From the IMG/VR virus record IMGVR_UViG_3300046517_002960, positions 126,217-190,216 of that record: a stretch of DNA of 64,000 bases; one strand, written 5' to 3'. The DNA comes from a virus. The translations under genes and the position numbers were made by a program. How positions within the stretch are numbered: position 1 is the stretch's first letter; the number at the start of each line of letters is the position of its first letter. The notes beneath the pieces are model-generated. The model was not told where the DNA came from. It worked only from the letters and a program-made list of their open reading frames with translations, and ran no database searches. Positions 1,562-57,048 of this stretch are shown piece by piece.

Positions 1562-2629
1562 TTACAGCTTCTCGATCAAGCCGAGCAGCCGCTTCGCGTT
1601 GTTCTCGAACGTGCGGTCCGCGACCGCTAGCCGGGCCTTCGCCGCCATTTCCTCCCGCTCGGCGTCATGCGACAGCAGCCAGCGCAGCTTCTCCGACGCG
1701 TCGCCGGGGCCGCTGAACGACGGCAGGATCTTCCCGAACAGCTCGTCAGATTCCGGCCGCGGGTCGCGCAGGAACGGCAGGCCTGTCGCCGCCAGCTCGA
1801 TCTCCCGCGGGCCGCACGCCCAGCCCTGGCCGTCCCAGTCCTCGGTGCCCTCGCGCCGGTAGAAGTTCAGCCCGGCCTTCGCGTGCCGGTACAGCTCGGC
1901 CGCCTGCGGGTTGTCGATGCAGTCCGGTTCGCCCAGCGGAGTGCCCACGTACCGGGCGGCGGGCGAGGCAGGATCCAGCTTGCCCCAGTCGTTCCCGGCC
2001 AGCAGCACGTCCAGCCCGGACAGGTCCATCTGCTCGAAGAACGCGATCCTGGAGGCGAACGCGGTGCCGATGAAGCACAGGTCGCTGGCCAGTTCCGGGT
2101 CGCGCGGCCCGCTCCGCGGATAATGCACCGATGGCCGGAAGGCATGCGGCATGTACTCAGCGGCTGTGACATCGCGGAACGCCTCCAGGTTCGCGGGATC
2201 GTTCAGCAGGGCCAGATCCGCGAATGCAGCCCGCGGCAGCTGTTCATTGTCTTGATACGGCGATTCAGTAAAGTGCATCACGGTCCTGAAGTTACGGCTG
2301 CGCATCAGCTGCATGTACGCCGCGGTCATGTAGAACCCGCTGATCATCAGGACCACGTCTGGCCAGAAGGTCAGCAGCGCGTGCGAGATGCCCTGCAGGG
2401 CCGCCATGAAGACCTGCTCCTGGGACATCGCGTTCCGCACGACCGGCAGTCCCGTCTCGTCCTTCTCGCCTGTGTCGATCAGGGCGTTGGAGTAGAAGAT
2501 GAGGCGGTCATTGAGGTTGTAGATCTGCGCGTCGCAGCCGAGTTCACGCAGTCCCTCGCACCAGCCGACCGCCACGTCATGCACGCTGAAATCGGGTAAA
2601 GGCCCGGGGTGAACGATGAGGACACGCAT
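1562..2629 (-). CDS. Glycosyltransferase (CgeB/DUF3880-like GT-B) with in-frame CCT-TTA-CCC at codons 10-12
   Basis: SDLCFIGT.F.SR, LYRHAKAGLNF.R, GPREIELAATG; 355 aa, high GC3. Confidence 0.85.
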   Translation of the reverse strand: MRVLIVHPGPLPDFSVHDVAVGWCEGLRELGCDAQIYNLNDRLIFYSNALIDTGEKDETGLPVVRNAMSQEQVFMAALQGISHALLTFWPDVVLMISGFYMTAAYMQLMRSRNFRTVMHFTESPYQDNEQLPRAAFADLALLNDPANLEAFRDVTAAEYMPHAFRPSVHYPRSGPRDPELASDLCFIGTAFASRIAFFEQMDLSGLDVLLAGNDWGKLDPASPAARYVGTPLGEPDCIDNPQAAELYRHAKAGLNFYRREGTEDWDGQGWACGPREIELAATGLPFLRDPRPESDELFGKILPSFSGPGDASEKLRWLLSHDAEREEMAAKARLAVADRTFENNAKRLLGLIEKL

Positions 2630-2648
2630 GGGCTGTAACCACCCCCTC

Positions 2649-3080
2649 TTAGATCGCTCCGCAGTTCAGGTTCAGCCGGCACCCGAAGTAAATAATGCCG
2701 CTGTACTCCACGCGCCCGTAGCTGTCGGCGCTGACCGGCTCGCACCATTCCACCTGCCCGCCGAGCGAGGTGTCCTTCAGGATCGCGGCCGGGATGGACT
2801 GGCCGGACCCGTCGCCGTGGTCGATGCCGAGGTAAGCGTCCAGCGCCCGCTGGGAGGCGTCGACCGGCGCCGCGTCGGTGATCAGGATCAGCACCATCAG
2901 GTTGAGCGTGAAGGTCTCGTCCATGGTGGAGCCGTACTGCAGGAACGGGCCGGCCCGGCCGGGCAGCACGACGGCGCACGGCGGGGTGACCTGATCCCGG
3001 GCCTGCCCCATCGCGCGCAGCCCGGTGTGCGCGGTGATCTGCGCGGCCAGCGCGTTGGTGACGGCAACCAGGTCCGCGAT
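2649..3080 (-). CDS. Tail terminator / tail-completion-like protein with probable non-canonical ATC start
   Basis: ALAAQI..PPCAVVLP..FTLNLMVLI..ALDAYL..IPAAILKDTSLGG resembles actinophage terminator-like proteins; TAATC overlap with the upstream stop. Confidence 0.6.
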   Translation of the reverse strand: MADLVAVTNALAAQITAHTGLRAMGQARDQVTPPCAVVLPGRAGPFLQYGSTMDETFTLNLMVLILITDAAPVDASQRALDAYLGIDHGDGSGQSIPAAILKDTSLGGQVEWCEPVSADSYGRVEYSGIIYFGCRLNLNCGAI

Positions 3081-3295
3081 TACTCCTCGCCCCCGTCCCA
3101 CTCCCAGCCGCAGCCGCTGAGGCCGGCCCCGGCTCCCGGGACGGGATGCCAGTACAGGTGCACGGCCAGCGCCGTCAGCAGCGCGGGCGCGAGCACCCGG
3201 TGCCGCTGGCAGAGCCGGGTGACGGTCGGCAGCCTCCCGGTGGCGATCGCCGCGACCTCGTACCCGCAGATCGCTGCGGCGGCCCACTTAGCCAC
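3080..3295 (-). CDS. Hypothetical membrane-associated protein
   Basis: GTG start coupled to neighbours; hydrophobic LAPALLTALAVHLYW. Confidence 0.55.
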   Translation of the reverse strand: MAKWAAAAICGYEVAAIATGRLPTVTRLCQRHRVLAPALLTALAVHLYWHPVPGAGAGLSGCGWEWDGGEE

Positions 3296-3557
3296 CAGGG
3301 GCCTCGCAGGCGCAGCCAGGCCCGTGCACCATGACCCCGGTGACCGACCGGTAGCAGGCAGGCGCAGGCACGAAATCGTCCTCCGGGCCGGTCTCCCAGG
3401 TCATGAACCCGGTATGCCGGAAGCCGGCGCGCTTCAGCTCCCGCACGGTCCGCGGCCACGTGATGAACTCGCGTACCTGCCAGCAGGCGTACAGCCACAG
3501 CGGCACGGTACGGTCCGGCGGCGCGGGACATCCGCTGCTGCACGCGCGGTCACCCAT
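3288..3557 (-). CDS. Hypothetical protein
   Basis: Overlapping start/stop coupling, high GC3. Confidence 0.55.
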   Translation of the reverse strand: MGDRACSSGCPAPPDRTVPLWLYACWQVREFITWPRTVRELKRAGFRHTGFMTWETGPEDDFVPAPACYRSVTGVMVHGPGCACEAPGG

Positions 3558-23346: not shown

Positions 23347-23745
23347 ATGCCGACAAGAGACTGGTGGGCGACCGAGTGGGATCGTTCAGCTTACGACCGG
23401 CAGCGGTACGAAGCAGCGAAACAGCAGCTCATCGCCCTGCTAGGCGGTAAATGTGCTAGATGCGGAACAACTGAAAACCTCCAGTTCGACCACGTAAATC
23501 GTGAACTCAAGGACTTTGCGATTACGGGCCGGTGGAACCGCAGCCAGGCTGAACTGGAAGCGGAACTAGCGAAGTGCCAGCTACTTTGCCAGCCTCACCA
23601 TCTGGAGAAGACCCGGCAAGAGATCGGTAACGAACACGGAGGCGGTAAAACAGGGATCAGGAAGTGCAAATGCGAACTCTGTCGGAACCGCAGAAGCGAA
23701 CACATGATCGAATATCGGCGTGAGCGTAAGAAGCAAACTACATAG
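23347..23745 (+). CDS. HNH homing endonuclease
   Basis: LGGKCARCG..LQFDHV..KCQLLC..HH; lower GC than its surroundings. Confidence 0.9.
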   Translation: MPTRDWWATEWDRSAYDRQRYEAAKQQLIALLGGKCARCGTTENLQFDHVNRELKDFAITGRWNRSQAELEAELAKCQLLCQPHHLEKTRQEIGNEHGGGKTGIRKCKCELCRNRRSEHMIEYRRERKKQTT

Positions 23746-23815
23746 GAGTGACCCACCGGTTCGGGAACCGCTCTCCAAAAGCGGTAAAAACAGCGTTCGA
23801 CTCGCTGCACTCCTG
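23744..23815 (+). tRNA. tRNA-Trp(CCA)
   Basis: AGGAGTG/CACTCCT; CCGCT-CTCCAAA-AGCGG; T-loop TTCGACT; overlaps the HNH stop. Confidence 0.8.
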
Positions 23816-23985
23816 CGACCGTCAGCCAAGGCGAGAGCCGCGGCAGGCGAATGTCACCGACATTTGAGAACTCCATAGCGTGAGCACCACGACGGGGGCG
23901 CCATCCCCCGTCACCTGGTGCGGTCCCCAGGCGCGATCAGCGGGCGAGTCGCCCCCGTGCCATGGCACCGCACCAATCCGTGCTG

Positions 23986-24025
23986 ACCTGGCCGGGCCGG
24001 TTGTTGCTAGACGGCCCGGCCAGGT
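23986..24025. repeat. 14-bp perfect inverted repeat (hairpin)
   Basis: ACCTGGCCGGGCCG..CGGCCCGGCCAGGT. Confidence 0.6.
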
Positions 24026-24040
24026 ACGGCACGATCCGAT

Positions 24041-24113
24041 GGGGCTGTAGCTCAGCTGGGAGAGCGTCTGCGTGGCACGCAGAAGGCCAGGGGTTCAAGT
24101 CCCCTTAGCTCCA
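24041..24113 (+). tRNA. tRNA-Ala(GGC)
   Basis: GGGGCTG/TAGCTCC; canonical arms. Confidence 0.95.
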
Positions 24114-24207
24114 CGCGGAGAGATCAGGGTGCAAGGTAGCGCGCCGTCGATGGAGGGCGGCGATGCTCCTGGGCAGCGGCCTGGCCGCGGACCACCCTTG
24201 CAGGCAC

Positions 24208-24280
24208 GGGGCTAGGGCGCGGCTGGTAGCGCAACTCGTTCGCACTGAGAAGGTGAGGGGTTCGAATCCCCTTAGCTCCA
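24208..24280 (+). tRNA. tRNA-Ala(CGC)
   Basis: GGGGCTA/TAGCTCC; loop TTCGCAC. Confidence 0.85.
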
Positions 24281-24284
24281 CAAT

Positions 24285-24362
24285 CCAGGGAGATCCGGGG
24301 ATCGCGTCCCGGCAGGGGTCCTGGTGCCCCTGTAGCTCAAGTGCAGAGCGCCTGGAGTACAA
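24285..24362 (+). ncRNA. Circularly permuted tRNA-like element 1
   Basis: CCAGG - variable - T-like arm - CAGGGGT - 6-nt linker - GCCCCTG - D arm - CCTGG. Confidence 0.65.
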
Positions 24363-24434
24363 CGGGACCGAGGAAGGCGGAAATCCGCCTCGTTCGGGGC
24401 GAGGAGAAGCCGGGTTCAACTCCCGGGGTCCCGA
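24363..24434 (+). tRNA. tRNA-Pro(CGG)
   Basis: CGGGACC/GGTCCCG; CCTCG-TTCGGGG-CGAGG. Confidence 0.8.
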
Positions 24435-24450
24435 CTATGCTTTCGATTTA

Positions 24451-24525
24451 CGGGCTGTAGCTCAGTTTGGTCAGAGCATCCGGCTGGGGGCCGGGAGGCC
24501 GCCGTTTCAAATACGGCCAGCCCGA
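24451..24525 (+). tRNA. tRNA-Pro(GGG)
   Basis: CGGGCTG/CAGCCCG; loop CTGGGGG. Confidence 0.9.
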
Positions 24526-24526
24526 C

Positions 24527-24599
24527 GAGGAGGAAGACGCGGTTCGAATCCGCCTGGCGGCTGAGAATGCCAACGGTAGCTCAATGGTAGAGCACCCTC
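24527..24599 (+). ncRNA. Circularly permuted tRNA-like element 2
   Basis: T arm GCGG-TTCGAAT-CCGC precedes D arm GCTC-AATGGTA-GAGC; closed by GAGG/CCTC. Confidence 0.55.
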
Positions 24600-24603
24600 C
24601 GTA

Positions 24604-24676
24604 CGGGGCGTAGCGCAGTTGGCCGCGCGCCTGATTTGGGATCAGGAGGACGTCAGTTCGAGCCTGGCCGCCCCGA
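24604..24676 (+). tRNA. tRNA-Pro(TGG)
   Basis: CGGGGCG/CGCCCCG; CCTGA-TTTGGGA-TCAGG. Confidence 0.9.
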
Positions 24677-24684
24677 CTGCACGA

Positions 24685-24759
24685 GGTCACCTAGCTGAGA
24701 CGGATTAGCGGCTGCCTGAAAAGCAGCAGAGGCAGGGTCGCTACCTGCGGTGACCACCA
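24685..24759 (+). tRNA. tRNA-Phe(GAA), atypical T-loop
   Basis: GGTCACC/GGTGACC-A-CCA; GCTGC-CTGAAAA-GCAGC. Confidence 0.85.
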
Positions 24760-24957
24760 TGGCATGACGGCGGATGGGCGCACGGGCAAACCGGGTCAGC
24801 CATCTTCCGCCTGGCCAGGCGAGTAGCGCTCCGCCTGGTAAGCCAGGCTGCTGCAGCGGCCCGGTCTCATGCCGCCCGGAGACGGGCCTGGTCACACCTG
24901 CGGTCAGCCTCGCAAGGGCGCCTGCCGGTCCCTGCTATCAGGTGGTCTCCGGGACTC

Positions 24958-25030
24958 GCGGATGAGTCCCAAACGGAAGGGTGCCGGCCCTCCAAGCCGG
25001 CTGCTGCGGGTTCGAGTCCCGTCATCCGCT
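24958..25030 (+). tRNA. tRNA-Gly(TCC)
   Basis: GCGGATG/CATCCGC; loop CCTCCAA. Confidence 0.85.
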
Positions 25031-25129
25031 CACGTGGGCTGCCACCGCCTCCCTACTAGGCAGCAGCTGGCCCGGCATACGCGGAGTGACCCCAGCCGGG
25101 GAATAACTGGTCACCAGGGGAGGCACCTC

Positions 25130-25201
25130 AGTCCGGTAGCTCAGCGGCAGAGCGGCGGGCTCTTAACCCGCGCGGCCTCGGTTCGATCCCGAGTCGGACT
25201 A
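25130..25201 (+). tRNA. tRNA-Lys(CTT)
   Basis: AGTCCGG/TCGGACT; GCGGG-CTCTTAA-CCCGC. Confidence 0.9.
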
Positions 25202-25389
25202 CGCAATGGGGGGCTTGTACTGCGGTACTGGCCTTAAACGGTGTCCCGGCTCGGCAATACGCGCGTGTTGCCCTGCACCTGGAGCGCCCCGCCGTGCCCT
25301 GTGCAGGGGCACGAGAACCCGCAGGGACCGTGCGTCAGCTGCGGGCGCCAACGGCTGGCTCGCACGGCCGGCCGGCGGCACTGCACGAC

Positions 25390-25477
25390 GGGCGGGTGGC
25401 GCAGCAGGATGACGCACCGGATTCAAGTCCCGGCGTCCGTAAGGACATTGAGGGTTCAACTCCCTCCTCGCCCACCA
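25390..25477 (+). tRNA. tRNA-Leu(CAA)
   Basis: Long variable arm; loop TTCAAGT; encoded CCA. Confidence 0.85.
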
Positions 25478-25502
25478 TTCTCCGGTCAGCCGGAGAATTC
25501 CA

Positions 25503-25577
25503 TGCGGTATGGGGGAACTGGCAGACCCGCCGGGCTCTGAACCCGGAGTTTTCCTGGTTCGAAGCCAGGTACCGCAG
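25503..25577 (+). tRNA. tRNA-Gln(CTG)
   Basis: TGCGGTA/TACCGCA; CCGGG-CTCTGAA-CCCGG. Confidence 0.9.
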
Positions 25578-25579
25578 CT

Positions 25580-25655
25580 GGAGTTGCTGGATAGCGCATG
25601 GGCAAGGCGCTTAGAGCTGGCCAGCTACCCGTTCGATTCGGGAACGGCAACTCCG
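25580..25655 (+). ncRNA. tRNA-like element without a recognisable anticodon loop
   Basis: GGAGTTG/CAACTCC acceptor; CCCG-TTCGATT-CGGG T arm. Confidence 0.45.
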
Positions 25656-25724
25656 CACAAGGTGTCCGGCGATTTCGCGTAGGAGCCGTCCAGCCTTTAA
25701 CTGGATCGGGGCAACGCGAGCAGT

Positions 25725-25799
25725 GCCCCGGTAGCTCAGGTCGGCCAGAGCGACGGCTTCGTAACCCGTGGGTCCCCAGTTCGATTCTGGGTCGGGGCT
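25725..25799 (+). tRNA. tRNA-Thr(CGT)
   Basis: GCCCCGG/TCGGGGC; loop TTCGTAA. Confidence 0.9.
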
Positions 25800-25872
25800 C
25801 TGTGCCGGTGCTGGCCTCAATAAGCCGGGCCTTCGGGTCACGCGCCCAACCGGGCTGGTACCGGCACTTCAC

Positions 25873-25958
25873 GTCCGGGTGATGGAATCGGAAGACGTGC
25901 TAGCTTGAGGAGCTGGTGCCCCGGAAGGGGCGTGCGGGTTCAAGTCCCGCCTCGGACA
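25873..25958 (+). tRNA. tRNA-Leu(GAG)
   Basis: Long variable arm; CTAGC-TTGAGGA-GCTGG. Confidence 0.9.
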
Positions 25959-25960
25959 CA

Positions 25961-26037
25961 GGGGAAGCAGTAGCTTAACGGACAGAGCACGGCTGATCAC
26001 CGACTGGTGAGGGGTTCGAGTCCCTTCCTGCTCCCCC
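25961..26037 (+). tRNA. Atypical tRNA-Ile(GAT): long acceptor, short anticodon stem
   Basis: GGGGAAGCAG/CTGCTCCCC; CGG-CTGATCA-CCG. Confidence 0.6.
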
Positions 26038-26041
26038 GTTC

Positions 26042-26116
26042 GCCGGCCTAGCTCATCGCAGGCAGAGCGTCCGCCTTGTAAGCGGAGGGTGGCCGGTTTG
26101 AGCCCGGCGGCCGGCT
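26042..26116 (+). tRNA. tRNA-Thr(TGT)
   Basis: GCCGGCC/GGCCGGC; TCCGC-CTTGTAA-GCGGA. Confidence 0.9.
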
Positions 26117-26120
26117 CCGG

Positions 26121-26193
26121 TGGGGACTGGGGTAACTGGCAGCCCGCCGGCCTTTGAAGCCGCGTAGTGCCCGTCCGAATCGGGCGTCCCCAG
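26121..26193 (+). tRNA. tRNA-Gln(TTG)
   Basis: TGGGGAC/GTCCCCA; loop CTTTGAA. Confidence 0.85.
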
Positions 26194-26202
26194 CAATAAC
26201 AC

Positions 26203-26276
26203 GCCCCGGTAGCTCAGCCGGTAGATGCGTCGGCATGGTAAGCCGAAGGTCCGCGGTTCAAATCCGCGTCGGGGCT
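26203..26276 (+). tRNA. tRNA-Thr(GGT)
   Basis: GCCCCGG/TCGGGGC; TCGGC-ATGGTAA-GCCGA. Confidence 0.9.
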
Positions 26277-26277
26277 C

Positions 26278-26623
26278 GAGCCGGCCGGACGGCCGCGGTA
26301 CCTGCACGTCAGGTACTGAGGAAAGTCCGGGCTCCAACGGGCAGGACGGTTGTTAACGGCAACCCGGGGCAACCCGCGGGAAAGCGTCACAGAAAGCAGA
26401 CCGCCCCGGCGACGGGGTAAGGGTGAAACGGCGGTGTAAGAGACCACCAGCGGACCGGGTGACCGGCCCGGCTCGGCAAGCCCCGTCCGGAGCAAGATCG
26501 CAAGGCCGAGGGCGGCCCGCCCGCTGACGCCTGGTGGATCGCACGAGCTCGCCGGCGACGGCAGGCCTAGATGGATGGCCGTCCCCCTGCGGCGGGGACA
26601 GAACCCGGCTTACAGGCCGGCTC
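26278..26623 (+). ncRNA. rnpB: RNase P RNA, bacterial type A
   Basis: GAGGAAAGTCCGGGCTCC (CR-I), ACAGAAA, GGGTGAAACGGCGGTGTAAGAGACCACC, ACAGAACCCGGCTTA (CR-V); P1 GAGCCGGCC/GGCCGGCTC. Confidence 0.97.
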
Positions 26624-26689
26624 AATGCCCGCTCCCCGGAGCGGATGTGCGGCGTAAGACCCGGCCGGCCGCGCGGCCCGGGCAGTCAT

Positions 26690-26762
26690 GCGGACGTGGC
26701 GCAGCTGGTAGCGCACGTGCTTGCCAAGCATGAGGTCGCGGGTTCAAATCCCGTCGTCCGCT
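26690..26762 (+). tRNA. tRNA-Gly(GCC)
   Basis: GCGGACG/CGTCCGC; canonical. Confidence 0.95.
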
Positions 26763-26834
26763 CTGAGATCACGCGGGATACTGGAGTGGCCCTGTCTGAA
26801 CCGCATCCGCGAACAGCGATCGCCGTGATCTCGC

Positions 26835-26918
26835 GCCCCGCTGGCGAAGCTGGAAGACGCGCACGGTTCAGGACCGTGTGTCCGTGAGGACGGGAGGGTT
26901 CAAATCCCTCGTGGGGCA
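26835..26918 (+). tRNA. tRNA-Leu(CAG)
   Basis: CACGG-TTCAGGA-CCGTG; long variable arm. Confidence 0.9.
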
Positions 26919-26923
26919 CTTCA

Positions 26924-27014
26924 GGAGGGTTGGCCCGGAGCTGGCGTACTGGGACCGCACTGCTAATGCGGCAGTCTGGAGACAGGCTCGCGAGTTCGAT
27001 TCTCGCACCTTCCG
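26924..27014 (+). tRNA. tRNA-Ser(GCT)
   Basis: CCGCA-CTGCTAA-TGCGG; long variable arm. Confidence 0.9.
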
Positions 27015-27170
27015 CGAGCAGGACAGGCTCTCCCCGCTGGCGGGCAGGTTACCCGCAGGGAGAGCCGGCCGGCGGCGGTAATCGGCCACCCCACCTGCCC
27101 TAGACGCTCTCCGGAATCCGCACCGGGAAGCGCCAAGCCCGGCGTCCCGGGCACTGCAGATTCTACCCCT

Positions 27171-27261
27171 GGAGGGTTCGCCTAGTGGCCTATGGCGCCG
27201 GCCCGGAAAGCCGGTTGGGACGAAAGTACCCTCGCGAGTTCGACTCTCGCACCCTCCGCCA
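27171..27261 (+). tRNA. tRNA-Ser(GGA)
   Basis: CCGGC-CCGGAAA-GCCGG; encoded CCA. Confidence 0.9.
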
Positions 27262-27296
27262 GCCTGGCCGTCCGGAGAATGGCGGCTGGGCCTGCT

Positions 27297-27383
27297 GGAG
27301 GATTCGCCTAGCGGCCAGGGCAGCCGATTTGAAACCGGCCAGGGGTCTTGCAGCCCTCGCGAGTTCGAGTCTCGCATCCTCCG
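27297..27383 (+). tRNA. tRNA-Ser(TGA)
   Basis: Loop TTTGAAA; long variable arm. Confidence 0.85.
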
Positions 27384-27387
27384 CCCG

Positions 27388-27475
27388 GGAGGGTTCGCCT
27401 AGTGGCCTATGGCGCCGGCTTCGAAACCCGGTTGGGACGAAAGTACCCTCGCGAGTTCGACTCTCGCACCCTCCG
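27388..27475 (+). tRNA. tRNA-Ser(CGA), near copy of Ser(GGA)
   Basis: Identical to 27171 except in the anticodon arm and the 3' tail. Confidence 0.85.
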
Positions 27476-27497
27476 CTTCACACCGTGCTTCACACAT

Positions 27498-27575
27498 GGG
27501 CCGGCAGCGTAGCCCGGTTCTCGCAGCTGGCTGATAACCAGTTTGGCGGAGGTTCAAATCCTCCCCGGCCCACCA
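27498..27575 (+). tRNA. tRNA-Ile(GAT)
   Basis: GCTGG-CTGATAA-CCAGT; encoded CCA. Confidence 0.9.
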
Positions 27576-27576
27576 T

Positions 27577-27653
27577 GGCGAGATAGCTCAGGCTGGCAGA
27601 GCGCCGGACTCATACCCCGGAGGTCGGGATCTCGGTATTCCCTCTCGCTACCA
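27577..27653 (+). tRNA. tRNA-Met(CAT) elongator (or Ile2)
   Basis: GGCGAGA/TCTCGCT-A-CCA; loop CTCATAC; atypical T-loop. Confidence 0.75.
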
Positions 27654-27732
27654 CGGCCCGTAGTTCAGCCTGGCTTAGAACGGCACCCTTATGAAGTGTG
27701 CGTCAGGGGTTCAAATCCCCTCGGGCCCACCA
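27654..27732 (+). tRNA. tRNA-Ile(TAT), C1:C72 mismatch
   Basis: Loop CTTATGA; encoded CCA. Confidence 0.75.
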
Positions 27733-27733
27733 T

Positions 27734-28309
27734 TCAGGAAGCACCGGCTAGCGGCACCTGCCGGGCGTTCCAGGCGCTGACGGCGGACAGCGTGAACCCG
27801 TCCGTGATCTCCCCGGCAGCGATCATCGCGGTGAGCCCGGAAAAGGTCAGCCACCGGATCTCGGTGATCTCCTCGGTGTCGGCCGGCACGGCCTGCATGG
27901 CCGCGGCACCTACCCGGGCCGCGTACATGTGCACCGCGGTCCCGAGGTGCGCGGAGTCCGGATGGACGCAGCCCAGGAATACCAGGTCCAGGGCCGCGGC
28001 GCCGATCTCCTCGATCAGCTCGGCGCGGGCGGTGGTCTCAGGGCAGGGGCCGTGCGCGTAGCCGCGGGGGAAGCCCCATTCCCATTCCTGGGTGGCGTAA
28101 CGCCAGGTCCGGACCAGGGCGGTATGCTCGCCGGTCACCGGCATGACGACCACGCCGGGATGGCCGCTCCCGGAGATGATGCGGTAGTAGCGGCCCTGCC
28201 GTCCGGAGGAGAACCGGACGTGATCATCAAATACGGTGACGAACCGGTTCCGGTAGACGATCTCCTCGGCGATTCTCTCGATCGGCGGCGCGCTGGCAGG
28301 TGCAGTCAT
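27734..28309 (-). CDS. NUDIX hydrolase (ADP-ribose pyrophosphatase-like)
   Basis: GFPRGY..ETTARAELIEEIG Nudix box; RTWRYA. Confidence 0.9.
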   Translation of the reverse strand: MTAPASAPPIERIAEEIVYRNRFVTVFDDHVRFSSGRQGRYYRIISGSGHPGVVVMPVTGEHTALVRTWRYATQEWEWGFPRGYAHGPCPETTARAELIEEIGAAALDLVFLGCVHPDSAHLGTAVHMYAARVGAAAMQAVPADTEEITEIRWLTFSGLTAMIAAGEITDGFTLSAVSAWNARQVPLAGAS

Positions 28310-28387
28310 GATCTTCCGTTCCCGCTCCCTGCCCCTGACAACGTGTCACAGCGAAGATACGTTCAGTGAGTAGCCTTATGTAAGCAG

Positions 28388-28459
28388 GGTCCGCTAGCTC
28401 AACGGCAGAGCATCCGACTTTTAATCGGCTGGTTCAGGGTTCGAGCCCCTGGTGGACCA
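28388..28459 (+). tRNA. tRNA-Lys(TTT)
   Basis: GGTCCGC/GTGGACC; loop CTTTTAA. Confidence 0.9.
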
Positions 28460-28460
28460 C

Positions 28461-28664
28461 TCAGCCCCAGGACACCATCTGCGGGGCCGGGTGCTTGGTC
28501 CAGGTGTCGGCGAGCGCCGGGTGCGCGTGCTTGGTCCAGGTGTCGGCGACGGTCGCGTGATGCGGAGCGGGCGGGGTGCCCCAGGACACCATCGCGGCAC
28601 CGGAGCCCGTGGCAACGGCGGCTGCGAGGACGAGAGCGGCGATCCTGGCCTTGGCGGATTTCAT
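28461..28664 (-). CDS. Secreted 67-aa peptide with repeated ADTWTKH and MVSWG motifs
   Basis: GAAGG SD; Sec-type signal MKSAKARIAALVLAAAVA; internal DNA repeats. Confidence 0.7.
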   Translation of the reverse strand: MKSAKARIAALVLAAAVATGSGAAMVSWGTPPAPHHATVADTWTKHAHPALADTWTKHPAPQMVSWG

Positions 28665-28702
28665 AGCGTTACCTTCCCCGTTACTAGGTGTTCTCATAAC
28701 TG

Positions 28703-28730
28703 AGCGTACAGACCGGTCACAGCGTGTCAA
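28703..28730 (-). promoter_or_regulatory. Promoter for the peptide gene
   Basis: TTGACA-N16-TACGCT on the minus strand. Confidence 0.6.
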
Positions 28731-28734
28731 TAGC

Positions 28735-28763
28735 TTGCGCGGCACTTTCCGTAGCCGTAAGGT
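28735..28763 (+). promoter_or_regulatory. Promoter for the second tRNA block
   Basis: TTGCGC-N17-TAAGGT ending 9 nt before tRNA-Arg. Confidence 0.5.
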
Positions 28764-28771
28764 GACAGGAT

Positions 28772-28844
28772 GCGCCTGTAGCTCAAGGGGATAGAGTCTC
28801 GCCTTCTAAGCGAGGGGATGGGGGTTCGATGCCTCCCGGGCGCG
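28772..28844 (+). tRNA. tRNA-Arg(TCT)
   Basis: GCGCCTG/CGGGCGC; loop CTTCTAA. Confidence 0.9.
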
Positions 28845-28975
28845 CTGGGGACCCCGGCCTGCGAGGCGGCCCGTGAGCCGTCGCCGGCAGATCCGGCACC
28901 GGGGTCCTCAACTAGTCTCAGCTGAGATATCGCGTAGTAGCCTCTTGAGACATCGGTCATTGCTATACTGAAAAC

Positions 28976-29470: not shown

Positions 29471-29506
29471 CGGATGTACCTGAAGATTGCTTCTGAACGC
29501 TTACAT

Positions 29507-29584: not shown

Positions 29585-29585
29585 T

Positions 29586-29660: not shown

Positions 29661-29674
29661 CGGTGTAAATGCGA

Positions 29675-29746
29675 CGCGGAGGGTGCTAGGTCAACCAGCC
29701 AGGCTCATAACCTCGGCAAACGCGGGTTCAAATCCCGCCTCCGCTA
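29675..29746 (+). tRNA. Initiator-like tRNA-fMet(CAT)
   Basis: CGCGGAG/CTCCGCT with C1 mismatch; loop CTCATAA; lacks the full 3 G-C anticodon pairs. Confidence 0.7.
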
Positions 29747-29750
29747 CTAA

Positions 29751-29821
29751 GGTGCCCTGGAGCGTTTCCGGCTGACTACCGGTCGTCGCCCCGGGTTCGT
29801 CGCCGGGATCAGGGCACCCCA
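29751..29821 (+). ncRNA. D-armless tRNA-like element (GAC loop) ending in CCA
   Basis: GGTGCCCTG/CAGGGCACC; CCGG-CTGACTA-CCGG; CCCGG-GTTCGTCG-CCGGG. Confidence 0.5.
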
Positions 29822-29822
29822 G

Positions 29823-29894
29823 TCCCCCATAGCTCAATGGCAGTAGCGCCCGGCCGTTAACCGGTGGATCTTGGTTCGAGTCCAGGTGGGGGAG
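29823..29894 (+). tRNA. tRNA-Asn(GTT)
   Basis: TCCCCCA/TGGGGGA; loop CCGTTAA. Confidence 0.9.
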
Positions 29895-29907
29895 CGCAGA
29901 AACACAA

Positions 29908-29981
29908 GGTGGCGTAACTCAGCAGGTCAGAGTGCTGGACTGTCTATCCGGAAGTCGCGGGTTCGAATCCCGTCGTCACCG
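29908..29981 (+). tRNA. tRNA-Asp(GTC)
   Basis: GGTGGCG/CGTCACC; loop CTGTCTA. Confidence 0.9.
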
Positions 29982-30094
29982 CTAGCACCCAGTCCCTGGT
30001 GCTTGCCCGGAAGGTCTTCCGCACACTGCGCGCGGCAGCGGAAGCGCCTGGCCGGGGAACCCGCGACAGCGTAACAGCGGCGGATGGGACACAC

Positions 30095-30168
30095 GGTCGC
30101 TTAGCTCAGTTCGGGAGAGCGTCGTCCTGACGCGACGAAGGCCACTGGTTCAATCCCAGTAGCGACCA
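30095..30168 (+). tRNA. tRNA-Val(GAC)
   Basis: TCGTC-CTGACGC-GACGA. Confidence 0.9.
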
Positions 30169-30182
30169 CGCAGTACCAGCAA

Positions 30183-30255
30183 GTCCCCGTAGCTCAACGG
30201 ATAGAGCTGCTGCCTACGGAGCAGTGCGTTGCAGGTTCGAGTCCTGCCGGGGATG
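30183..30255 (+). tRNA. tRNA-Arg(ACG)
   Basis: GCTGC-CTACGGA-GCAGT. Confidence 0.9.
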
Positions 30256-30324
30256 CCAGCGGAGAGGTATCGGCAGTACCGTAAAGCCAGGTCACGTGCC
30301 CGAGGACCTGCGCCTCTCCGTCAA

Positions 30325-30400
30325 GGGCGGTTAGCTCAGCGGGAGAGCGCTGGGTCCACACCCCGGGACATTTGCGCCGGTTCGATCCCGGCACCGCCTA
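30325..30400 (+). tRNA. tRNA-Val(CAC)
   Basis: GGGCGGT/ACCGCCT; loop TCCACAC. Confidence 0.85.
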
Positions 30401-30402
30401 CT

Positions 30403-30474
30403 GTGGCCGTAGCTCAATGGTCAGAGCAACGGGCCGTGAACCCGAATATGCGCGTTCAATTCGCGTCGGCCACC
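30403..30474 (+). tRNA. tRNA-His(GTG), no encoded G-1
   Basis: GTGGCCG/CGGCCAC-C; loop CCGTGAA. Confidence 0.85.
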
Positions 30475-30476
30475 CC

Positions 30477-30560
30477 GGCAGGTTACCCAAGCGGACAAAG
30501 GGAGCTGTCTGTAAAACAGTCGGCATTACGCCTGCGCTGGTTCGAACCCAGCACCTGCCA
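30477..30560 (+). tRNA. tRNA-Tyr(GTA)
   Basis: GCTGT-CTGTAAA-ACAGT; long variable arm. Confidence 0.9.
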
Positions 30561-30561
30561 C

Positions 30562-30981
30562 ATGAACACGAAAACGAGAATCGGCCTGGACTACTGGCAG
30601 GTCTGCAGCCACTGGCCGTACTTCGGCGAGCTGGCGGCGGCCCTGCGGGCGGCAGGCCATGAGGTGCACGTCATCTCGGCGGTCGGCCGGAAATCCGCCG
30701 GCACCGTCGCGCCCGGGCTAGCTGAGCTCGGTATCGCCGTTGACGGCGTGCACGAGCGGCTGTTCCGCCATCCGCGGGAGTCGCCGCAGCTGAAGCTGGC
30801 CGCGTGCCGGGAACTGGGCATCGGGGTCTTCTACGACGACCGGCAGGACGTGACCGACCTGCTGAACGCGAACGGGATCCTGGCCCTGCGGGTGCCGCGG
30901 CGCCAGGCCGGGCTGTCGGACACTGAGGGAGAACGGCGGGGCTCGCCGCCGCGGGGTGATCGTGACCCGGCAGCCGTCTAA
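30562..30981 (+). CDS. HAD-superfamily-like protein (degenerate DxD)
   Basis: RIGLDYW..GHEVHVISA..KLAACRELGIGVFYDDR. Confidence 0.65.
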   Translation: MNTKTRIGLDYWQVCSHWPYFGELAAALRAAGHEVHVISAVGRKSAGTVAPGLAELGIAVDGVHERLFRHPRESPQLKLAACRELGIGVFYDDRQDVTDLLNANGILALRVPRRQAGLSDTEGERRGSPPRGDRDPAAV

Positions 30982-31046
30982 GGTCGTGACCCGGCTGAAC
31001 GAGAAAGACCCGCCAGCCTCAGGGCACAGCGGGCCGCAGTAAGCAG

Positions 31047-31120
31047 GACCCCATAGCTCAGCGGATAGAGCACCGCCCTCCGGAGGCGGGTTGTCGCAGG
31101 TTCGAATCCTGCTGGGGCCA
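31047..31120 (+). tRNA. tRNA-Arg(CCG)
   Basis: CCGCC-CTCCGGA-GGCGG. Confidence 0.9.
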
Positions 31121-31179
31121 CTGGCTGGCAGGTGAGCAGGCTGACACCGCCTTCGGGCTCAGCCCCCTGCCGGCCGTAC

Positions 31180-31255
31180 CGCCGAGTGACCGAGCTGGCT
31201 AGGTGAACGCCTGCAAAGCGTTTTGACACGGGTTCAAGTCCCGTCTCGGCGTCCA
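31180..31255 (+). tRNA. tRNA-Cys(GCA)
   Basis: AACGC-CTGCAAA-GCGTT; U73; encoded CCA. Confidence 0.9.
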
Positions 31256-31256
31256 C

Positions 31257-31330
31257 GACCCTGTAGCTCAGCCGGATAGAGCAGGCGCCCCCTAAGCGCT
31301 ATGTCGCGGGTTCGAATCCCCCCAGGGCCA
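31257..31330 (+). tRNA. tRNA-Arg(CCT)
   Basis: GGCGC-CCCCTAA-GCGCT. Confidence 0.85.
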
Positions 31331-31344
31331 CGTATGATGAGGAC

Positions 31345-38093: not shown

Positions 38094-39195
38094 TCACCCC
38101 CCGGGCACGCTGGGTGACTGGCTGCCGGCCTGCCGCGCGAACAGCCCGGCGTAGGCGGCTTCCCACTGCTGCCAGTGGTCCTCGATCAGGTGCCGGCGGG
38201 CCATCTCCCGGGCCGCCTCGCCCATCTTGGCGCGCAGCGCGTCGTCGCCGGCCAGCTCGGACAGGTACTTCAGCCATTCGTGGTCGCGCTTCACCAGGAA
38301 GCCGTCGACCCCGTGGGTGATCACGGCCCGGTACGGCTCGATGTCGCTGGCGACGGTCGGGATCCCGCGGGCGCCGTACTCGATCGCCTTAATTGCCGAT
38401 TTACTTTTCGAAAACGAGGTGGGCCACAGCGGGGCCAGGCCGATGTCGAAGTTGATCCCGGCGAAGTACTTCTCCGGGTGCTTGTAAACCGGCACCCAGC
38501 CGATGTAGGACATCCGGTCGTACGGCACGCCCTCGTCCCCGAAGGTCTCCCGGTAATCCGAGCCGTTCAGCTGCAGGTCCCAGCCCGGAAACCGCTTGAG
38601 GAACCGGTGGACCGGCGATGCCACCTGGCCGATGTCGACGCCATGGCTCGCGCCGCCCTGCCAGCCGACCCGCGGCCGTTTCCGGCCGGGCCGCGGCAGC
38701 CGGGTAGCCCAGCCCGGGACGCAGTTAGGCAGCACGGCAACCCGGTCGTGCCCGGCTACCTCGCGCATTACCCGCGCCAGCGGCTCGGTGGTGACGGTAA
38801 CCAGGTCGGCGGTCTCGGCGGCGTGCTGGGTCGCATCCCGGATCTCCGGGCGGCCGTACAGGTGGTAGGCGTTCCAGTTCTCGGCCGTCACGTTCCACAG
38901 GTCGTCATCGAGCTCGTAGACCAAGCGGCTGAACGGGCCGCGGGCGCGCCGCCACACATGCAGCCCGTCGTGCTTGTTCCACCGCTGCGCCACGATCACG
39001 TCATAGCCCGCCAGGTCGCCCAGGGTGACCGAGACCGGGTGACCGTCATCGCCGGCGTCGGTGAAATGCACCTCGTGCCCGCCGTACCGGGCCAGCGCGT
39101 CCAGGGGTGCTTTCATGCGATACCAAGCCTAAAGCGCACCCCGAGCCGCCATCGTGCCCGGCGAAAATCTTCAAGGGTGCAGGGTTCACCGGCAT
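38094..39195 (-). CDS. GT-B (GT4-like) glycosyltransferase interrupted by a 7-nt TTA-containing gap (39132-39126); about 364 aa when joined
   Basis: GAAGGAG SD; MPVNPAPLKIFAGHDGGSGCA + WYRMKAPL..; DIGLAPL..KSAIKAIEYGARGIP.VASD. Confidence 0.85.
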
Positions 39196-39308
39196 GTTAC
39201 CGCTCCTTCCGCTCTACACATCAACTTGGCATCCCGGATGCCGTGCATCTGCAGCCAGCTGTAGGCACACCCTGAACCGCCATCATGTCCAGCGAAGATT
39301 CTAATCAG
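39186..39308 (-). other. 40-codon ORF beginning with a synonymously recoded copy of the GT N-terminus
   Basis: IRIFAGHDGGSGCAY versus LKIFAGHDGGSGCA; GAGGGAG upstream; start codon CTG or ATT uncertain. Confidence 0.55.
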
Positions 39309-51659: not shown

Positions 51660-53215
51660 TCAATGCCTCCCATTGCTGCCATGGCCGTTGAGCACCAGGT
51701 CCTGCCGCGACGGGATCCACGCCCCGACGAACTCCGGCGGGCTGGCCTGGACGTGCGCCCGAGCCCTCCGGCGCGTCTCCAGGAAATCGAGGATGAGCTG
51801 GGCATCCTCGCGTTCTTCGCGGGTCGCGCCGTAGTGGCGCTGGGACGCGATGATCTGGCCGAGCTCCTGCTCAGCGGACGGCACCTGGGGGACCGCACCC
51901 GGCGTCGGCTCGGCCAGCCCCTGCTTGGCCAGCTGCTGCAGCTTGTCCGCGGCCAGGTCCATCTCCAGGTCGATCGACGGCTCCATCGACTTGGGGATGC
52001 CGCGGATCGACCGGGCCATCGCGACCATGACTTCCAGCGGGATGAACTCGTTGCCGGCCCCGCCGGGCAGCGGCTCGAGGTCTTCCAGGTCACGGATCTC
52101 ATCGACGCTGCGCAGGCCCATCTCCCGCTGCGCGTGGTAGATCTCTGTCCGCGTCTTCAGGTCCGTCTTCAGCAGGGCATCGGAGTTGAAGCGGCAGTAC
52201 CGGTTCTGCGGCAGCAGCTGGAAGAAGGCCGTTTCCAGTCTCACCAGCCACGGACGCAGCGCCTCGATCACCTGCAGGGTGCTCTGCTCCACTGTGTTGT
52301 AGGTGAGGCTGTCGCCGCGGGTGCCACCGATGCGGTCCGGGGGGAGGTTGAGGATGGAGGCGATCTGCGTGGCGTTCATGCGCAGCGCCTCGATGAACTG
52401 GCTCTCGCTCGGCGGCACGACCACCGGGGAGTACTTCCAGTCGCGGCCGTAGACCAGCGGCTCGCGGCGCCGGATGGTGGCGGTGAGCATGGACCGGATC
52501 TCCTCGGCCTGCTCGCGCGTGATCTCGATCTCGGTATTCTCGAACGTCCCGGGCGGGAAGCCCCCGGCGAGATACCAGTCCGTGCCGTAGCGCTCGGCTT
52601 CCAGGCCGGACAAGATGGTCAGCGCGAACGCGCGCAGCGGGGAGATGCCCTCCATCCGGCCCGGCAGGCTGAACGCCCTGATGTGGAACAGCTCGGAACG
52701 GTCCATCAGGCGGCCGTAGCAGTAGATCCGGGTGCGCAGCGGATTGAACGGCTGCGCCTGGTCCGGCACGACGTCAACGTCCTCGGGCGGCATCCACTCG
52801 ATCGACCGCGGCAGCCCGTAGCCGTCCCGGGAGGTGATCAGGCCCCAGGCATTGCCCTGCAGGAGCAGGCTGGACATGCACTGGAACAGCCAGTCGAACA
52901 GGGTGCCGTCGATGCTGGGCTGGTCGAAGATGGACGGGCCGTCGTACCGGCGGGTGCGCTGGTCGCCGCTGCCGGGCTTGAGGTAGATCTTCAGCGGCAG
53001 CGCGGCGGTGGAGTTGGCCAGCAGCGACACGCCGGAGTACAGCGCGGGCAGCGCGAGCGCCCGGTCAGTGCCGAAGAACGCCCGGGAGGGATGCACCGGG
53101 CCGCCCGTATCGAACTTCCGGGTAACCAGTAGGGATTATCCCAGGGCCTCCACGGCACCCCGCCGATCGCCCGGGCCTCTGTACGGCTCGCGCGTATCTT
53201 CTCGATCAATCCCAT
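51660..53215 (-). CDS. Portal protein interrupted by an 8-nt TTA-containing gap (53125-53118); about 515 aa when joined
   Basis: MGLIEKIR..WDNPYW + KFDTGGPVHPSR..; LLLQGNAW, HIRAF, QIASILNLPP, LTYNTVEQ, LRPWLVRLE. Confidence 0.9.
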
Positions 53216-53418
53216 AACTGCTGTATCACCCCCTCCCATCACAAGGGGGCGCAGAAGGGAACCGCTGACGCGGCAGGACTGGCTCGGACCTCAACAGTCC
53301 CACGGACCTGGGACTCCCCTGCGGACGGAACGGCGGACCCGGCTCCGTTCGGCCGCGGGCTAAGGACTAGCTCACAGCGTACGCCCTGACAGCCGTATTG
53401 TGTTAGGGCCGGGCATTC

Positions 53419-54754: not shown

Positions 54755-55110
54755 CAGGCCTTCTCCCGCTTGCGGTCCCGCTCGGCCTCGGCGGATTCGG
54801 GCTGTGCTTCGCCGGCTTTGTTCCCGGACGCGGGCACCGTCTCGGACCCGGCTTCCGGCGCGGCAGCCGAGGCGGCAGCTGCCTCGGCGGCGTCCTGCGG
54901 CGGGCCGCCTGGCGCCCGCGCGATCTCCTGCTCGGCGAGCGGGTCCGCGGCGATCGCGGTGTTCTCCGGCATCCGGGACTCTATCTCGCGTTCCTGCTGC
55001 GCCAGGACCTCGGCCGGCGGGTGCTCGGCCTCCCACTGGCTATCTGGCACGCCGTGATGCTCCTGCGCGGCGGCCTGGTCCTTCTCGTCCTTCTTGGCCT
55101 TGTCAGCCAT
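54754..55110 (-). CDS. Acidic low-complexity protein
   Basis: GGAAGG SD; 118 aa. Confidence 0.6.
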   Translation of the reverse strand: MADKAKKDEKDQAAAQEHHGVPDSQWEAEHPPAEVLAQQEREIESRMPENTAIAADPLAEQEIARAPGGPPQDAAEAAAASAAAPEAGSETVPASGNKAGEAQPESAEAERDRKREKA

Positions 55111-55324
55111 CTGCCTTCCCTTCGCTCTCATCCTCATCCTGCTTCGCCCGCTTGCCCCGGGCGGGGGGCTCGTCCTGCTGCGGGGGCTGGCTTACCGGCG
55201 CCGCCGCCCCGGACTCCGGTGCCCGCAGGTCAGCCCACACCCGGGGATCCATGGCGGCCTGGTCATGCGCGGCCCGGGCCGCTTCCTCGTCGTGCGCCCG
55301 GTCCCTGGCCTTCTTCGCGGTCAT
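55103..55324 (-). CDS. Hypothetical protein
   Basis: GAGGAGG SD. Confidence 0.6.
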   Translation of the reverse strand: MTAKKARDRAHDEEAARAAHDQAAMDPRVWADLRAPESGAAAPVSQPPQQDEPPARGKRAKQDEDESEGKADG

Positions 55325-55351
55325 CGTCCTCCTCTATCCCGCAGATTCGGG

Positions 55352-57048
55352 TCAACCCACTGATTTCAGGGGGTCGTAGCTGTACCGCTTCCTGTTCAGC
55401 CCCCACAGCGCGTCGGTGCCGGAGCTGACCGGGGTGATGTCCGATTCGCTGTCGCGGCGGGACCAGGCCCGGCCGCCGTCGCCGACGTCGCGGGTCTCCG
55501 CGCTGGCCACCGCGCTGTGCAGCCCGGGAGCCTGCTCGCGGCCCAGGTGGATGAGCCGCTGGTGCGGGTCCGGGTGCCGGGCGGTCGTGACGAACAGCGC
55601 GAACGCGGCGGCCTCGTCGGCGGAGCTCATCGCGGTCACCTCGATGCCGGCCTTCTCCAGGTCCGGGATCAGCGCGGCGGCCGGGCCGTTCTTCGGCACC
55701 ACGACGGCGGCCGGCTTCCAGGCCCGCTTCAGCCGCAGCAGCTCCGGCACGACCCACCTGGCGCCCTCCCGGTGGCAGCCGCGCGGGATCTCGATGACCG
55801 GCCGCTGCCTGCCGTCCGGGCCGGGCCGGTACCAGCAGGCGGAGATCGCGGCCGAGAGCATGTCCGGGTCGATGTCGACGGCGAACACCACCGGCCGGGT
55901 GGCGCCGCCGGGGTCAGCCATGGCGCAGGCCTGCCAGGACTCCTCGCTGATCACCGCCCAGGCCTCGTCGCCGGCCGGCCAGTCTCCCACTCCCAGCCGC
56001 TCGCGGTCGAACGTGTTCCCCAGGGTCATCGCGGCCAGCTCGTGCGCGACGTGGTCCGCGGAGATCCGCACGCCGAGCGCGGGGTTGGCCTTAGCCCAGG
56101 CCCGCGGGTCGTCCCGGTCATCGTGCAGCGCGCAGGTGATGTACCGGTTGGTTTTCCGGCCGCGGATCTCGTCGCGGGAGCAGGTATCGAGGTGCGGGTT
56201 GATGCTCCACTCGGCGCCCATCAGCCGCGGGTCGCGCTGCAGCACCCGGCGGCGCACCGAGGCGAGCTGGACGCTGTCCTTGTAGCCGGCGCTGGCCGTG
56301 TAGATGACCTGCGGGTTCGGCACCGCGGACAGGGTGGGCAGGGACGCGCCGACCACCTCGTCGGACAAGATCATCGCCTCGTCGTAGACCACCGTGTCCG
56401 CGGTGAAGGCCCGGCCGGAGCCGCGGGAGCGGGCCAGGAACCGCAGCCGCCCCGCGACGTTGCGGCGGATGCGCCGCCCGCCGGGGCCGAAGATCAGCGT
56501 CGACTTGGGCTTGAGCTCGATCGCCTCGTCGCCGTGGGACGTGGTGACCGCCTTGACCCGGCGGCGGAGCTCGTCGTAGGCGGTCACCACGTCCCGGACC
56601 CGGCGGAAGTGCTCGGCAGCGGCCTTGAACTCAGTAATTCGTGGGCTGTATGGATAATCATCGATTCTCCGAACAAAAACAGCCCAGCGAGTTCCCTCAC
56701 CTCCAGACATGTGTTCTTGCCGTTCTGCCGGCTGAGGACCAGGTAGTTCTCGAACGACGCCCAGCGCCCGTCCGGGCGGGTGCCGCACAGCTCGGTCAGG
56801 AACCAGCCCTGCCACGGGTCCAGCTCGTAGCCGAAGTTCGGCGCCCACCCGAGCATGTCGGCGGAGGTGCGCTCGCCGCACCCGGCCCGGTAACCGGGAT
56901 CGGCGCAGGCCGGGCAGTCCGCGGCCTTGTCCCGGTGCCGCGCCGGCGCGGTCCAGAACCGGGGCGCCTGGCCGCCGAGCGCGTCGGCGCCGCGCAGCAC
57001 GGAGCCGTCTGGCAGCCAGACATCGCCGATAACGGACAGCGCGGACAT
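55352..57048 (-). CDS. terL: Terminase large subunit interrupted by an 8-nt TTA-containing gap (56637-56630); about 562 aa when joined
   Basis: Walker A LSRQNGKNT and IIHTAHE in one frame; FKAAAEHF, Walker B VVYDEAM, ANPALG and nuclease AVDIDPD in the -1 frame. Confidence 0.92.

Follow-up and report, generated by a model that had tools for sequence, protein, structure and literature searches.

Introduction

Programmed bypassing by bacterial ribosomes has been described in print for relatives of phage T4 gene 60 and for three Streptomyces terminases. The gene 60 bypass and the MobA HNH element of T4 reportedly go back to Huang 1988 and Bonocora 2011, and UUA-mediated bypassing in the Streptomyces phage phiHau3 is also said to be due to Smith et al. 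2013. Here these systems are compared with a set of short TTA-led gaps in the genes of a phage represented by the IMG/VR virus record IMGVR_UViG_3300046517_002960. The stretch analysed, referred to as the window, comprises the final 64 kb (64,000 nucleotides, nt) of this record, which is 190,216 bases long and has a G+C content of 71%; the IMG/VR entry bears the label "provirus" and a completeness of 90%. At least seven genes of this uncultured soil phage, including those of the packaging motor and the portal, carry 5–10 extra bases that start at TTA, a codon otherwise unused, and that the ribosome most likely skips.

Of 100 terminase genes, 3 were found to have UUA-mediated bypassing, those of phiHau3 and of two prophages (Antonov et al. 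2023, PMC10732093). The junction peptide was detected in E. coli, and the full-length product in Streptomyces (PMC10732093). The two gaps of the phiHau3 terminase are GGC[TTACTCCGGT] and TCT[TTAACGGTCC], in which the take-off codon is followed by the gap in brackets. In T4, the bypass insert, and not the flanking polymorphisms, blocks nicking by MobA; it outlasts the nuclease, and other nucleases can carry it (Manning and Atkins, 10.1101/2022.08.31.505936). The mitochondria of Magnusiomyces capitatus have byps elements (Lang et al. 2014), which are reviewed in PMC5009743. Reviews regard T4 as a case of nuclease protection and phiHau3 as a separate case, one of UUA sensing (PMC5009743). Inteins in actinophage terminases are also known (Kelley et al. 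2016, PMC5050341). In the literature covered, which is incomplete, no paper was found on hops in portal, tape-measure or glycosyltransferase genes, or on a link between UUA and nucleases.

Results and discussion

The four gaps of the window are insertions

Four minus-strand genes of the window, encoding the large terminase (terL), the portal and two glycosyltransferases (GT 38094 and GT 1562, named after their first positions), contain TTA-led gaps of 8, 8, 7 and 6 nt, respectively (Table 1). These sites, from which the original prediction had started, were found again at the same coordinates, and comparison with intact homologs identified them as exact insertions, the removal of which restores a continuous protein. 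When the gap length was voted on by homologs without regard to codons, the agreement was complete: 25 of 25 homologs gave 8 nt for terL, 25 of 25 gave 8 nt for the portal, 9 of 9 gave 7 nt for GT 38094, and 4 of 4 gave 6 nt for GT 1562. The homologs of GT 1562 do not have the two gap residues; therefore, this in-frame site is an insertion too. In the alignments the gaps are bounded by matched or near-matched codons, as had been predicted: three of the four sites have synonymous codons, and the portal site matches at two of three positions.

The codon grammar by itself is weak. A synonymous triplet lies 6–8 nt downstream of 28% of the TTA triplets of the genome, and a two-of-three match at the same distance is found for 52%. 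Because such a grammar often arises for any TTA triplet, the claim is carried by the homolog comparison. TTA is otherwise absent: it was counted 0 times among the 17,529 codons of long open reading frames selected by third-position G+C content, and 0 times inside 46,635 called codons, although the gene caller penalises TTA.

Since the source is a metagenomic contig, assembly errors might be suspected, as might dead genes of defective phages. The terL, GT 38094 and GT 1562 sites, however, are letter-identical in 3, 2 and 4 contigs of other assemblies (JGI, Logan), and such identity in independent assemblies speaks against an assembly error. A second assembly spanning the portal site was looked for and none was found; relatives carry different gaps at that Trp codon, where nine different gaps occur among 96 alleles. 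As described below, the family has 49 different gaps, nearly all led by TTA, in genes under purifying selection, and the genomes G003 and G004, in which gaps are present, have terminal repeats. This explanation is already largely refuted and can be practically dismissed.

Pattern of the gaps in the phage family

A scanner that called frame-breaking insertions without looking at the codons was applied to 303 loci. In the phage loci it gave 51 insertions, 46 of which have an in-frame TTA no more than three codons away, and three more adjoin TTA gaps; an odd extra event in L157 was excluded from the counts. Instead of random breaks free of TTA, the homologs thus show TTA-led insertions in 49 of 51 cases. 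The remaining two are led by other rare codons, AAA (L187 portal, L187:1622) and TGT (L134 glycosyltransferase, L134:7992), and sit at the same spots as TTA gaps of relatives. L187 also has an upstream HNH gene. Thirteen control rare codons were read in place in 94–98% of cases, whereas TTA was read in place in 1 of 26, that one in a distant locus.

The gaps are unevenly distributed. Of 96 portal alleles, 45 are gapped and eight of the 96 have two gaps; gaps are present in 9 of 28 GT alleles. At the terL site of the window only 2 of 52 alleles are gapped (the other is L090), in addition to one gapped at Walker A (L190). A pattern scan for additional terL gaps found only the contig of L090, and the 80 bacterial genome loci, with prophage terminases of 35–44% identity, showed no TTA gaps.

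The 49 distinct gaps are 1–13 nt long and fall into frame classes of 23, 15 and 11, the last being in frame. The landing codon is synonymous with the take-off codon in 37 of 49 (3.8 expected), and at least two of three positions match in 46 (7.9 expected). Nothing else besides TTA and the codon match is common to them. Of 40 take-off codons, 35 have A or T in the last position, as compared with 17 of the landing codons. The commonest gap site has the take-off codon CGA, which is present in only 4 of 51 intact alleles. Usual pairs are CGA followed by CGC or CGT, and TCT followed by TCC, that is, weak pairing gives way to strong pairing. Plain duplication would yield identical codons, and the direction of this change thus suggests that selection acts on decoding.

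The portal has a pN/pS ratio (nonsynonymous to synonymous differences) of 0.13–0.35, in keeping with purifying selection. For the 28 codons across the gap pS was 0.66 and pN 0.11, as compared with a pS of 0.26–0.56 in the body. These values indicate that the 5' segment is translated and, at the same time, has been recoded or replaced. It should be mentioned that L298, L299 and L157 differ in their gaps although their portal bodies are identical; the 5' cassette may therefore be exchanged rapidly within a population. On the portal tree (a quick tree and FastTree) gap status changes 24 times, at least 16 of them forced, and shows no clustering beyond that of shuffles.

Two terminases of phiHau3 type were also encountered. 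One has two gaps, GGC[TTACCGGC] and TCT[TTAGTCC] (L468:2767, 3072); the other has a one-base TTT-TTA slip (L459:3082).

Probable bypass of the gaps

The gaps are very probably best explained by matched-codon hopping of the ribosome at UUA. The features of the gaps fit nothing but a ribosome: at every site the TTA keeps the reading frame of the codons before it, and the gap closes at a point where the P-site tRNA can pair anew. At the DNA level, an insertion of 1–13 nt starting with TTA follows a codon, and its last codon can usually be read by the same tRNA. The ribosome would then stall with UUA in the empty A site. The peptidyl-tRNA might leave the weak take-off codon, mostly ending in A or U, slide forward and re-pair at the landing codon, where translation would resume.

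A plain +1 or −1 slip at UUA that includes the gap residues, or re-initiation giving two polypeptides, would require no skip. Such events seem natural for the 1–2 nt gaps of relatives on U runs, which are ordinary slips; GT 38094 has an ATG three codons past its gap, and the in-frame gaps are readable as they stand. On the other hand, the landing match occurs at exactly the length defined by homologs, with the excess over expectation given above, and the flanking motifs in intact alleles accept no insertions. Residues on both sides are conserved and synonymous sites are near saturation; furthermore, a stop inside the phiHau3 gap left recoding undiminished (PMC10732093). Translation without a skip is thus considered quite unlikely. 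Removal at the RNA level by a micro-intron, editing or polymerase slippage would likewise restore the protein. However, gaps of 1–13 nt have only TTA in common and most sites have no homopolymer run, and both the upstream frame of TTA and the codon-matched ends are relevant to a ribosome only; such removal seems extremely unlikely.

Several observations do not favour hopping. No RNA folding signal was detected at the four window sites (z from −0.85 to +0.85). Enrichment of Shine-Dalgarno-like sequences was seen at one class of portal site only (Arg/Gln), with no general spacing rule. The landing codon of the window portal, CGG, mismatches the take-off codon TGG at position 1. In addition, a single phage would depend on as many as five obligatory hops in its virion assembly genes, and on the efficiency of each.

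Association with homing endonucleases and inteins

The gaps probably exist since they break the target sites of homing endonucleases and leave the protein unchanged, the short coding gap being skipped in translation. The original prediction contained no such link. By hidden Markov model (HMM) search, a divergent HNH gene (phrog_374) was found just upstream of 14 of 43 gapped portals (L089 and L034 provide examples of such a portal-linked HNH) versus 2 of 44 intact ones (p 0.0008). On independent pairs the association was 8.1 to 0, with a median p of 0.008. A narrow motif search upstream of the portals had found no nucleases; the HMM search did reveal them. When decayed old 5' copies are counted together with nucleases, by a rough threshold, the numbers are 27 of 37 gapped and 8 of 34 intact portals.

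The full cassette consists of an old 5' copy, a nuclease on the opposite strand, a new 5' end, and the gap where the similarity stops. It is visible in the HNH gene of this genome (gap at 48192; an HNH of this genome lies at 48365-48946) and in the L110 glycosyltransferase, where an HNH-AP2 endonuclease lies between two 5' copies of the GT gene; in GT 38094 of the window the old copy is kept and the nuclease is gone. A third HNH type precedes the L132 homolog of GT 1562, whose gap of 7 nt falls at the same codon. Inteins mark the mid-gene sites. In L331 a LAGLIDADG intein lies 6 nt 3' of the terL gap site of the window. The terL gap of L190 is likewise followed, at a distance of 6 nt, by the insertion site of inteins in four relatives (the nuclease domain was checked in two), and in L420 an intein lies 3 nt 3' of the gap site of the Cas4-like exonuclease.

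These associations suggest that the 5' end of a conserved gene is invaded by a homing endonuclease, which brings a synonymously recoded new 5' end. A gap lies at or near the junction, and gaps in mid-gene lie 3–6 nt from intein homing sites. By analogy with T4 MobA, the gap might prevent cutting of its allele, which could thus either withstand invasion or be spread together with the nuclease, and it would outlast a decayed nuclease. On the simplest reading, the gaps break homing sites and cost the protein nothing, which the poor reading of UUA during infection would make possible. The dependence on scarce tRNA-Leu(UAA) would then be what the gaps require and not what they are for, although it might secondarily act as a timer.

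Other findings are less easily accommodated by an origin from homing sites. No nuclease is detectable today for 29 of 43 gapped portals, and none adjoins any of the four window sites, where remnants or nothing are found. Two nuclease-bearing portals are ungapped, and the same HNH family stands before the capsid gene in L064 and L045 with no gap. Conserved motifs are preferred by gaps and inteins alike, and gaps can be detected only between conserved flanks; the test provided by the three intein coincidences is therefore a biased one. As far as the sequences go, the nuclease link is an association.

The proposed sensor function and joint gating

The original prediction held that packaging and glycosylation genes are gated together by UUA, with inverted logic. 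What stood of it is that the insertions are real and UUA-led, that their ends are matched or near-matched, and that hopping explains them best; gating as a module was not supported. The capsid, the protease, the other glycosyltransferases and the epimerases are ungapped, and 11 of the 49 gaps leave the frame unchanged. Nor do the gaps travel together: terL is gapped and the portal intact in L090, and on the contig of L006/L091 a GT is gapped and both terL and the portal are intact. Concerning the inverted logic, decoding of UUA would indeed give truncated products of three genes (154, 74 and 49 residues), but truncation need not be the selected purpose.

The hops might nevertheless be kept as a sensor or timer that restricts the synthesis of virion assembly proteins to times when the host has little tRNA-Leu(UAA). 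The trigger could be a bldA-like cell state or replacement of host tRNAs by the phage array, and such a function can coexist with a nuclease-linked origin. The same idea has been put forward for phiHau3 (PMC10732093). Among 453 tRNA genes of the phage and its relatives, tRNA-Leu(UAA) was found 0 times, as a sensor would have it; tRNA-Leu(UAG), however, is nearly as absent (1 of 453) though CTA is decoded normally, which makes the missing tRNA-Leu(UAA) weak evidence. The gaps are mostly in late genes, the doubly gapped portals exist, many gaps persist with no nuclease, and the genome encodes a SPOUT-like methyltransferase. Against these points, half of the portal and nearly all terL alleles are ungapped, turnover is rapid and patchy over the portal tree, gaps differ among the three portals with identical bodies, and two gaps begin with AAA or TGT. 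A tyrosine integrase and a serine recombinase were searched for in the phage and neither was found. In addition, bldA-type control is perhaps confined to Streptomycineae (PMC4255298), whereas the host hints given below are weakly for Streptosporangiales. A sensor is therefore regarded as rather unlikely to be the reason for the gaps, and disruption of homing sites is preferred.

Gapped genes and gene content of the genome

The gapped genes are listed in Table 1. The probable older portal start has a borderline score of 15.1 against a rough threshold, and its position is that of clear remnants in relatives. The gap at 48192 is backed by an older 5' copy and frame restoration rather than by outside homologs. 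The genome-only scan did not pick up the tape measure, exonuclease and HNH gaps; further gap sites are possible, because these three were missed.

Table 1. Gapped genes and related features of the phage genome (positions are those of the window unless another sequence is named)
Feature	Position	Strand	Details
terL, large terminase	55352..57048	−	both halves match phrog_9; 562 residues with gap skipped, 154 with UUA decoded
terL hop	56630..56640	−	take-off GAA 56640-56638; 8-nt gap 56637-56630, GAA[TTACTGAG], ends in GAG
Portal gene	51660..53215	−	PF04860; 515 residues skipped, 74 decoded
Portal hop	53118..53128	−	take-off TGG; 8-nt gap 53125-53118, TGG[TTACCCGG], ends in CGG
Probable decayed older portal start	53277..53306	−	GTG at 53303; 88 nt before working ATG
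GT-B glycosyltransferase gene (GT 38094)	38094..39195	−	PF00534/PF13524, phrog_7162; 364 residues skipped, 49 decoded
GT 38094 hop	39126..39135	−	take-off GCT; 7-nt gap 39132-39126, GCT[TTAGGCT], ends in GCT
Older duplicate of GT 38094 5' end	39262..39308	−	similarity ends at take-off codon
Second glycosyltransferase-like gene (GT 1562)	1562..2629	−	PF13524; 353 residues skipped, 355 decoded
GT 1562 in-frame gap	2594..2602	−	take-off CCT; 6 nt 2599-2594, CCT[TTACCC], landing CCC
Tape measure gap (outside window)	G000 123572-123584, genome 123581		ATT[TTAACGAGTC], 10 nt; contiguous in L404; locus L403
Cas4-like exonuclease gap (outside window)	G000 76699-76711, genome 76708		TTC[TTAGCTGTTC], 10 nt; contiguous in L421, L423; locus L400
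HNH gene gap (outside window)	G000 48188-48195, genome 48192		AGA[TTAGG], 5 nt; locus L399
tRNA array, about 40 genes and RNase P RNA	23744..31331	+	no tRNA-Leu(UAA)

The minus strand of the window carries an HK97-like head module composed of portal (PF04860), protease (PF04586), capsid (PF05065) and terminase (phrog_9). No isolated phage is near: the closest terminase has 34% identity. Relatives are soil and peat contigs of up to 210 kb. The host is presumably an actinomycete and may lie outside Streptomyces. The top matches in bacterial genomes are prophages of Planobispora and Nonomuraea (41–44%), and the named matches of the flavohemoglobin are Actinomadura, Trebonia and Streptosporangiaceae (about 42%). 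Comparison via tRNA-Leu(CAA) and RNase P RNA points to no single taxon. These hints lean weakly toward Streptosporangiales.

The tRNA array covers every take-off codon used by the gaps of this genome. A search for a hidden tRNA-Leu(UAA) in the window gave none, the lone candidate loop near 25228 not being tRNA-like. Three atypical tRNAs are located at 27577-27650, 27654-27732 and 29675-29746 (+); two have a CAT anticodon and were not called by default ARAGORN, and the remaining one was called His(ATG) and has an odd anticodon arm. A class A RNase P RNA is encoded within the array at 26277-26628 (+), and a Ro60/TROVE protein gene follows directly after it at 32035-33756 (+). Most large relatives (L337-L396, G001-G010) have 30–38 tRNA genes each. 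G005 (185 kb, 99% complete) has two portal gaps and no tRNA genes; the gaps thus do not require a phage tRNA array.

A sugar-modification cluster at 36426-46302 and 21873-22919 (−), with further glycosyltransferases, a C-methyltransferase and two NAD-dependent epimerases, has no gaps. Putative tail genes at 8400-12900 (−) have 78% G+C and long open frames in several phases; this stretch is probably repetitive or collagen-like. A DNA methyltransferase gene (phrog_116) lies at 62443-63489 (+). The HNH gene at 60138-60527 (−) was considered as the partner of the terL gap and rejected, since it occurs in relatives with intact terL. Outside the window, flavohemoglobin (L399:15325-16563), the SPOUT-like methyltransferase (L399:10084-10599), a large DNA polymerase A fusion (L400:1684-7422) and an SNF2 helicase with a LAGLIDADG domain, probably an intein (L400:11577-15098), are encoded.

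Comparison with known systems

A broader reading is offered tentatively, with doubt slightly prevailing. In the host of this clade, bacterial ribosomes might generally skip, whatever the context, wherever a weak codon is followed by UUA and a matching codon lies no more than 13 nt away. Phages and their homing endonucleases would draw on this signal again and again to disrupt homing sites, and the gaps would be a third protein-neutral way of doing so, besides introns and inteins. Nuclease cassettes would thereby protect themselves, and terminase and exonuclease genes would become immune to inteins. On this reading the gaps of phiHau3 would have the same origin; one of them is located in Walker A, a motif in which inteins of terminases are concentrated. 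No inteins were found at the phiHau3 junctions in 42 close relatives. The 49 natural variants and three more in one genome form a series for the minimal hop signal, the tolerance of landing mismatches and in-frame hops. In practice, gene callers cut short the portal, terminase and tape measure in a widespread soil phage group.

With phiHau3 the present phage shares the short gap, UUA in the first position, a synonymous landing codon, the location in terminase ATPase motifs, and avoidance of UUA in the genome. It differs in belonging to a distant clade, in having at least seven gene families with gaps and a range of lengths that includes in-frame and mismatched cases, and in the absence of a flanking hairpin signal. 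The tie to homing endonucleases and inteins is a further difference; PMC10732093 mentions neither homing nor intein.

Inteins of actinophage terminases occupy the same ATPase motifs as the gaps and are an alternative protein-neutral interruption of the homing site. Unlike the gaps, which encode nothing, they code for a nuclease of their own and are spliced out of the protein. The byps resemble the gaps in that they are short and numerous within one genome, place a codon not otherwise used in the A site, depend little on context, and tolerate imperfect landing. However, byps act on mitochondrial ribosomes and are a mobile hairpin element of common origin, whereas the phage gaps act on bacterial ribosomes and have neither a shared element sequence nor a hairpin.

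T4 gene 60 with MobA has a coding gap with matched take-off and landing beside an HNH nuclease, as seen here. The T4 gap is about 50 nt, begins with a stop or rare codon, depends on stem-loops and a nascent-peptide signal, and occurs in one gene (topoisomerase). The gaps of this phage are far shorter, mutually unrelated and recurrent in many genes, and are associated with at least three HNH families and with LAGLIDADG intein sites. The system resembles the T4 MobA cassette in action, and is neither homologous to it nor a member of it. The findings would join two known kinds, the UUA bypassing of phiHau3 and the gene 60/MobA cassette of T4, and the data suggest a single origin for both types of bypassing and make it testable.

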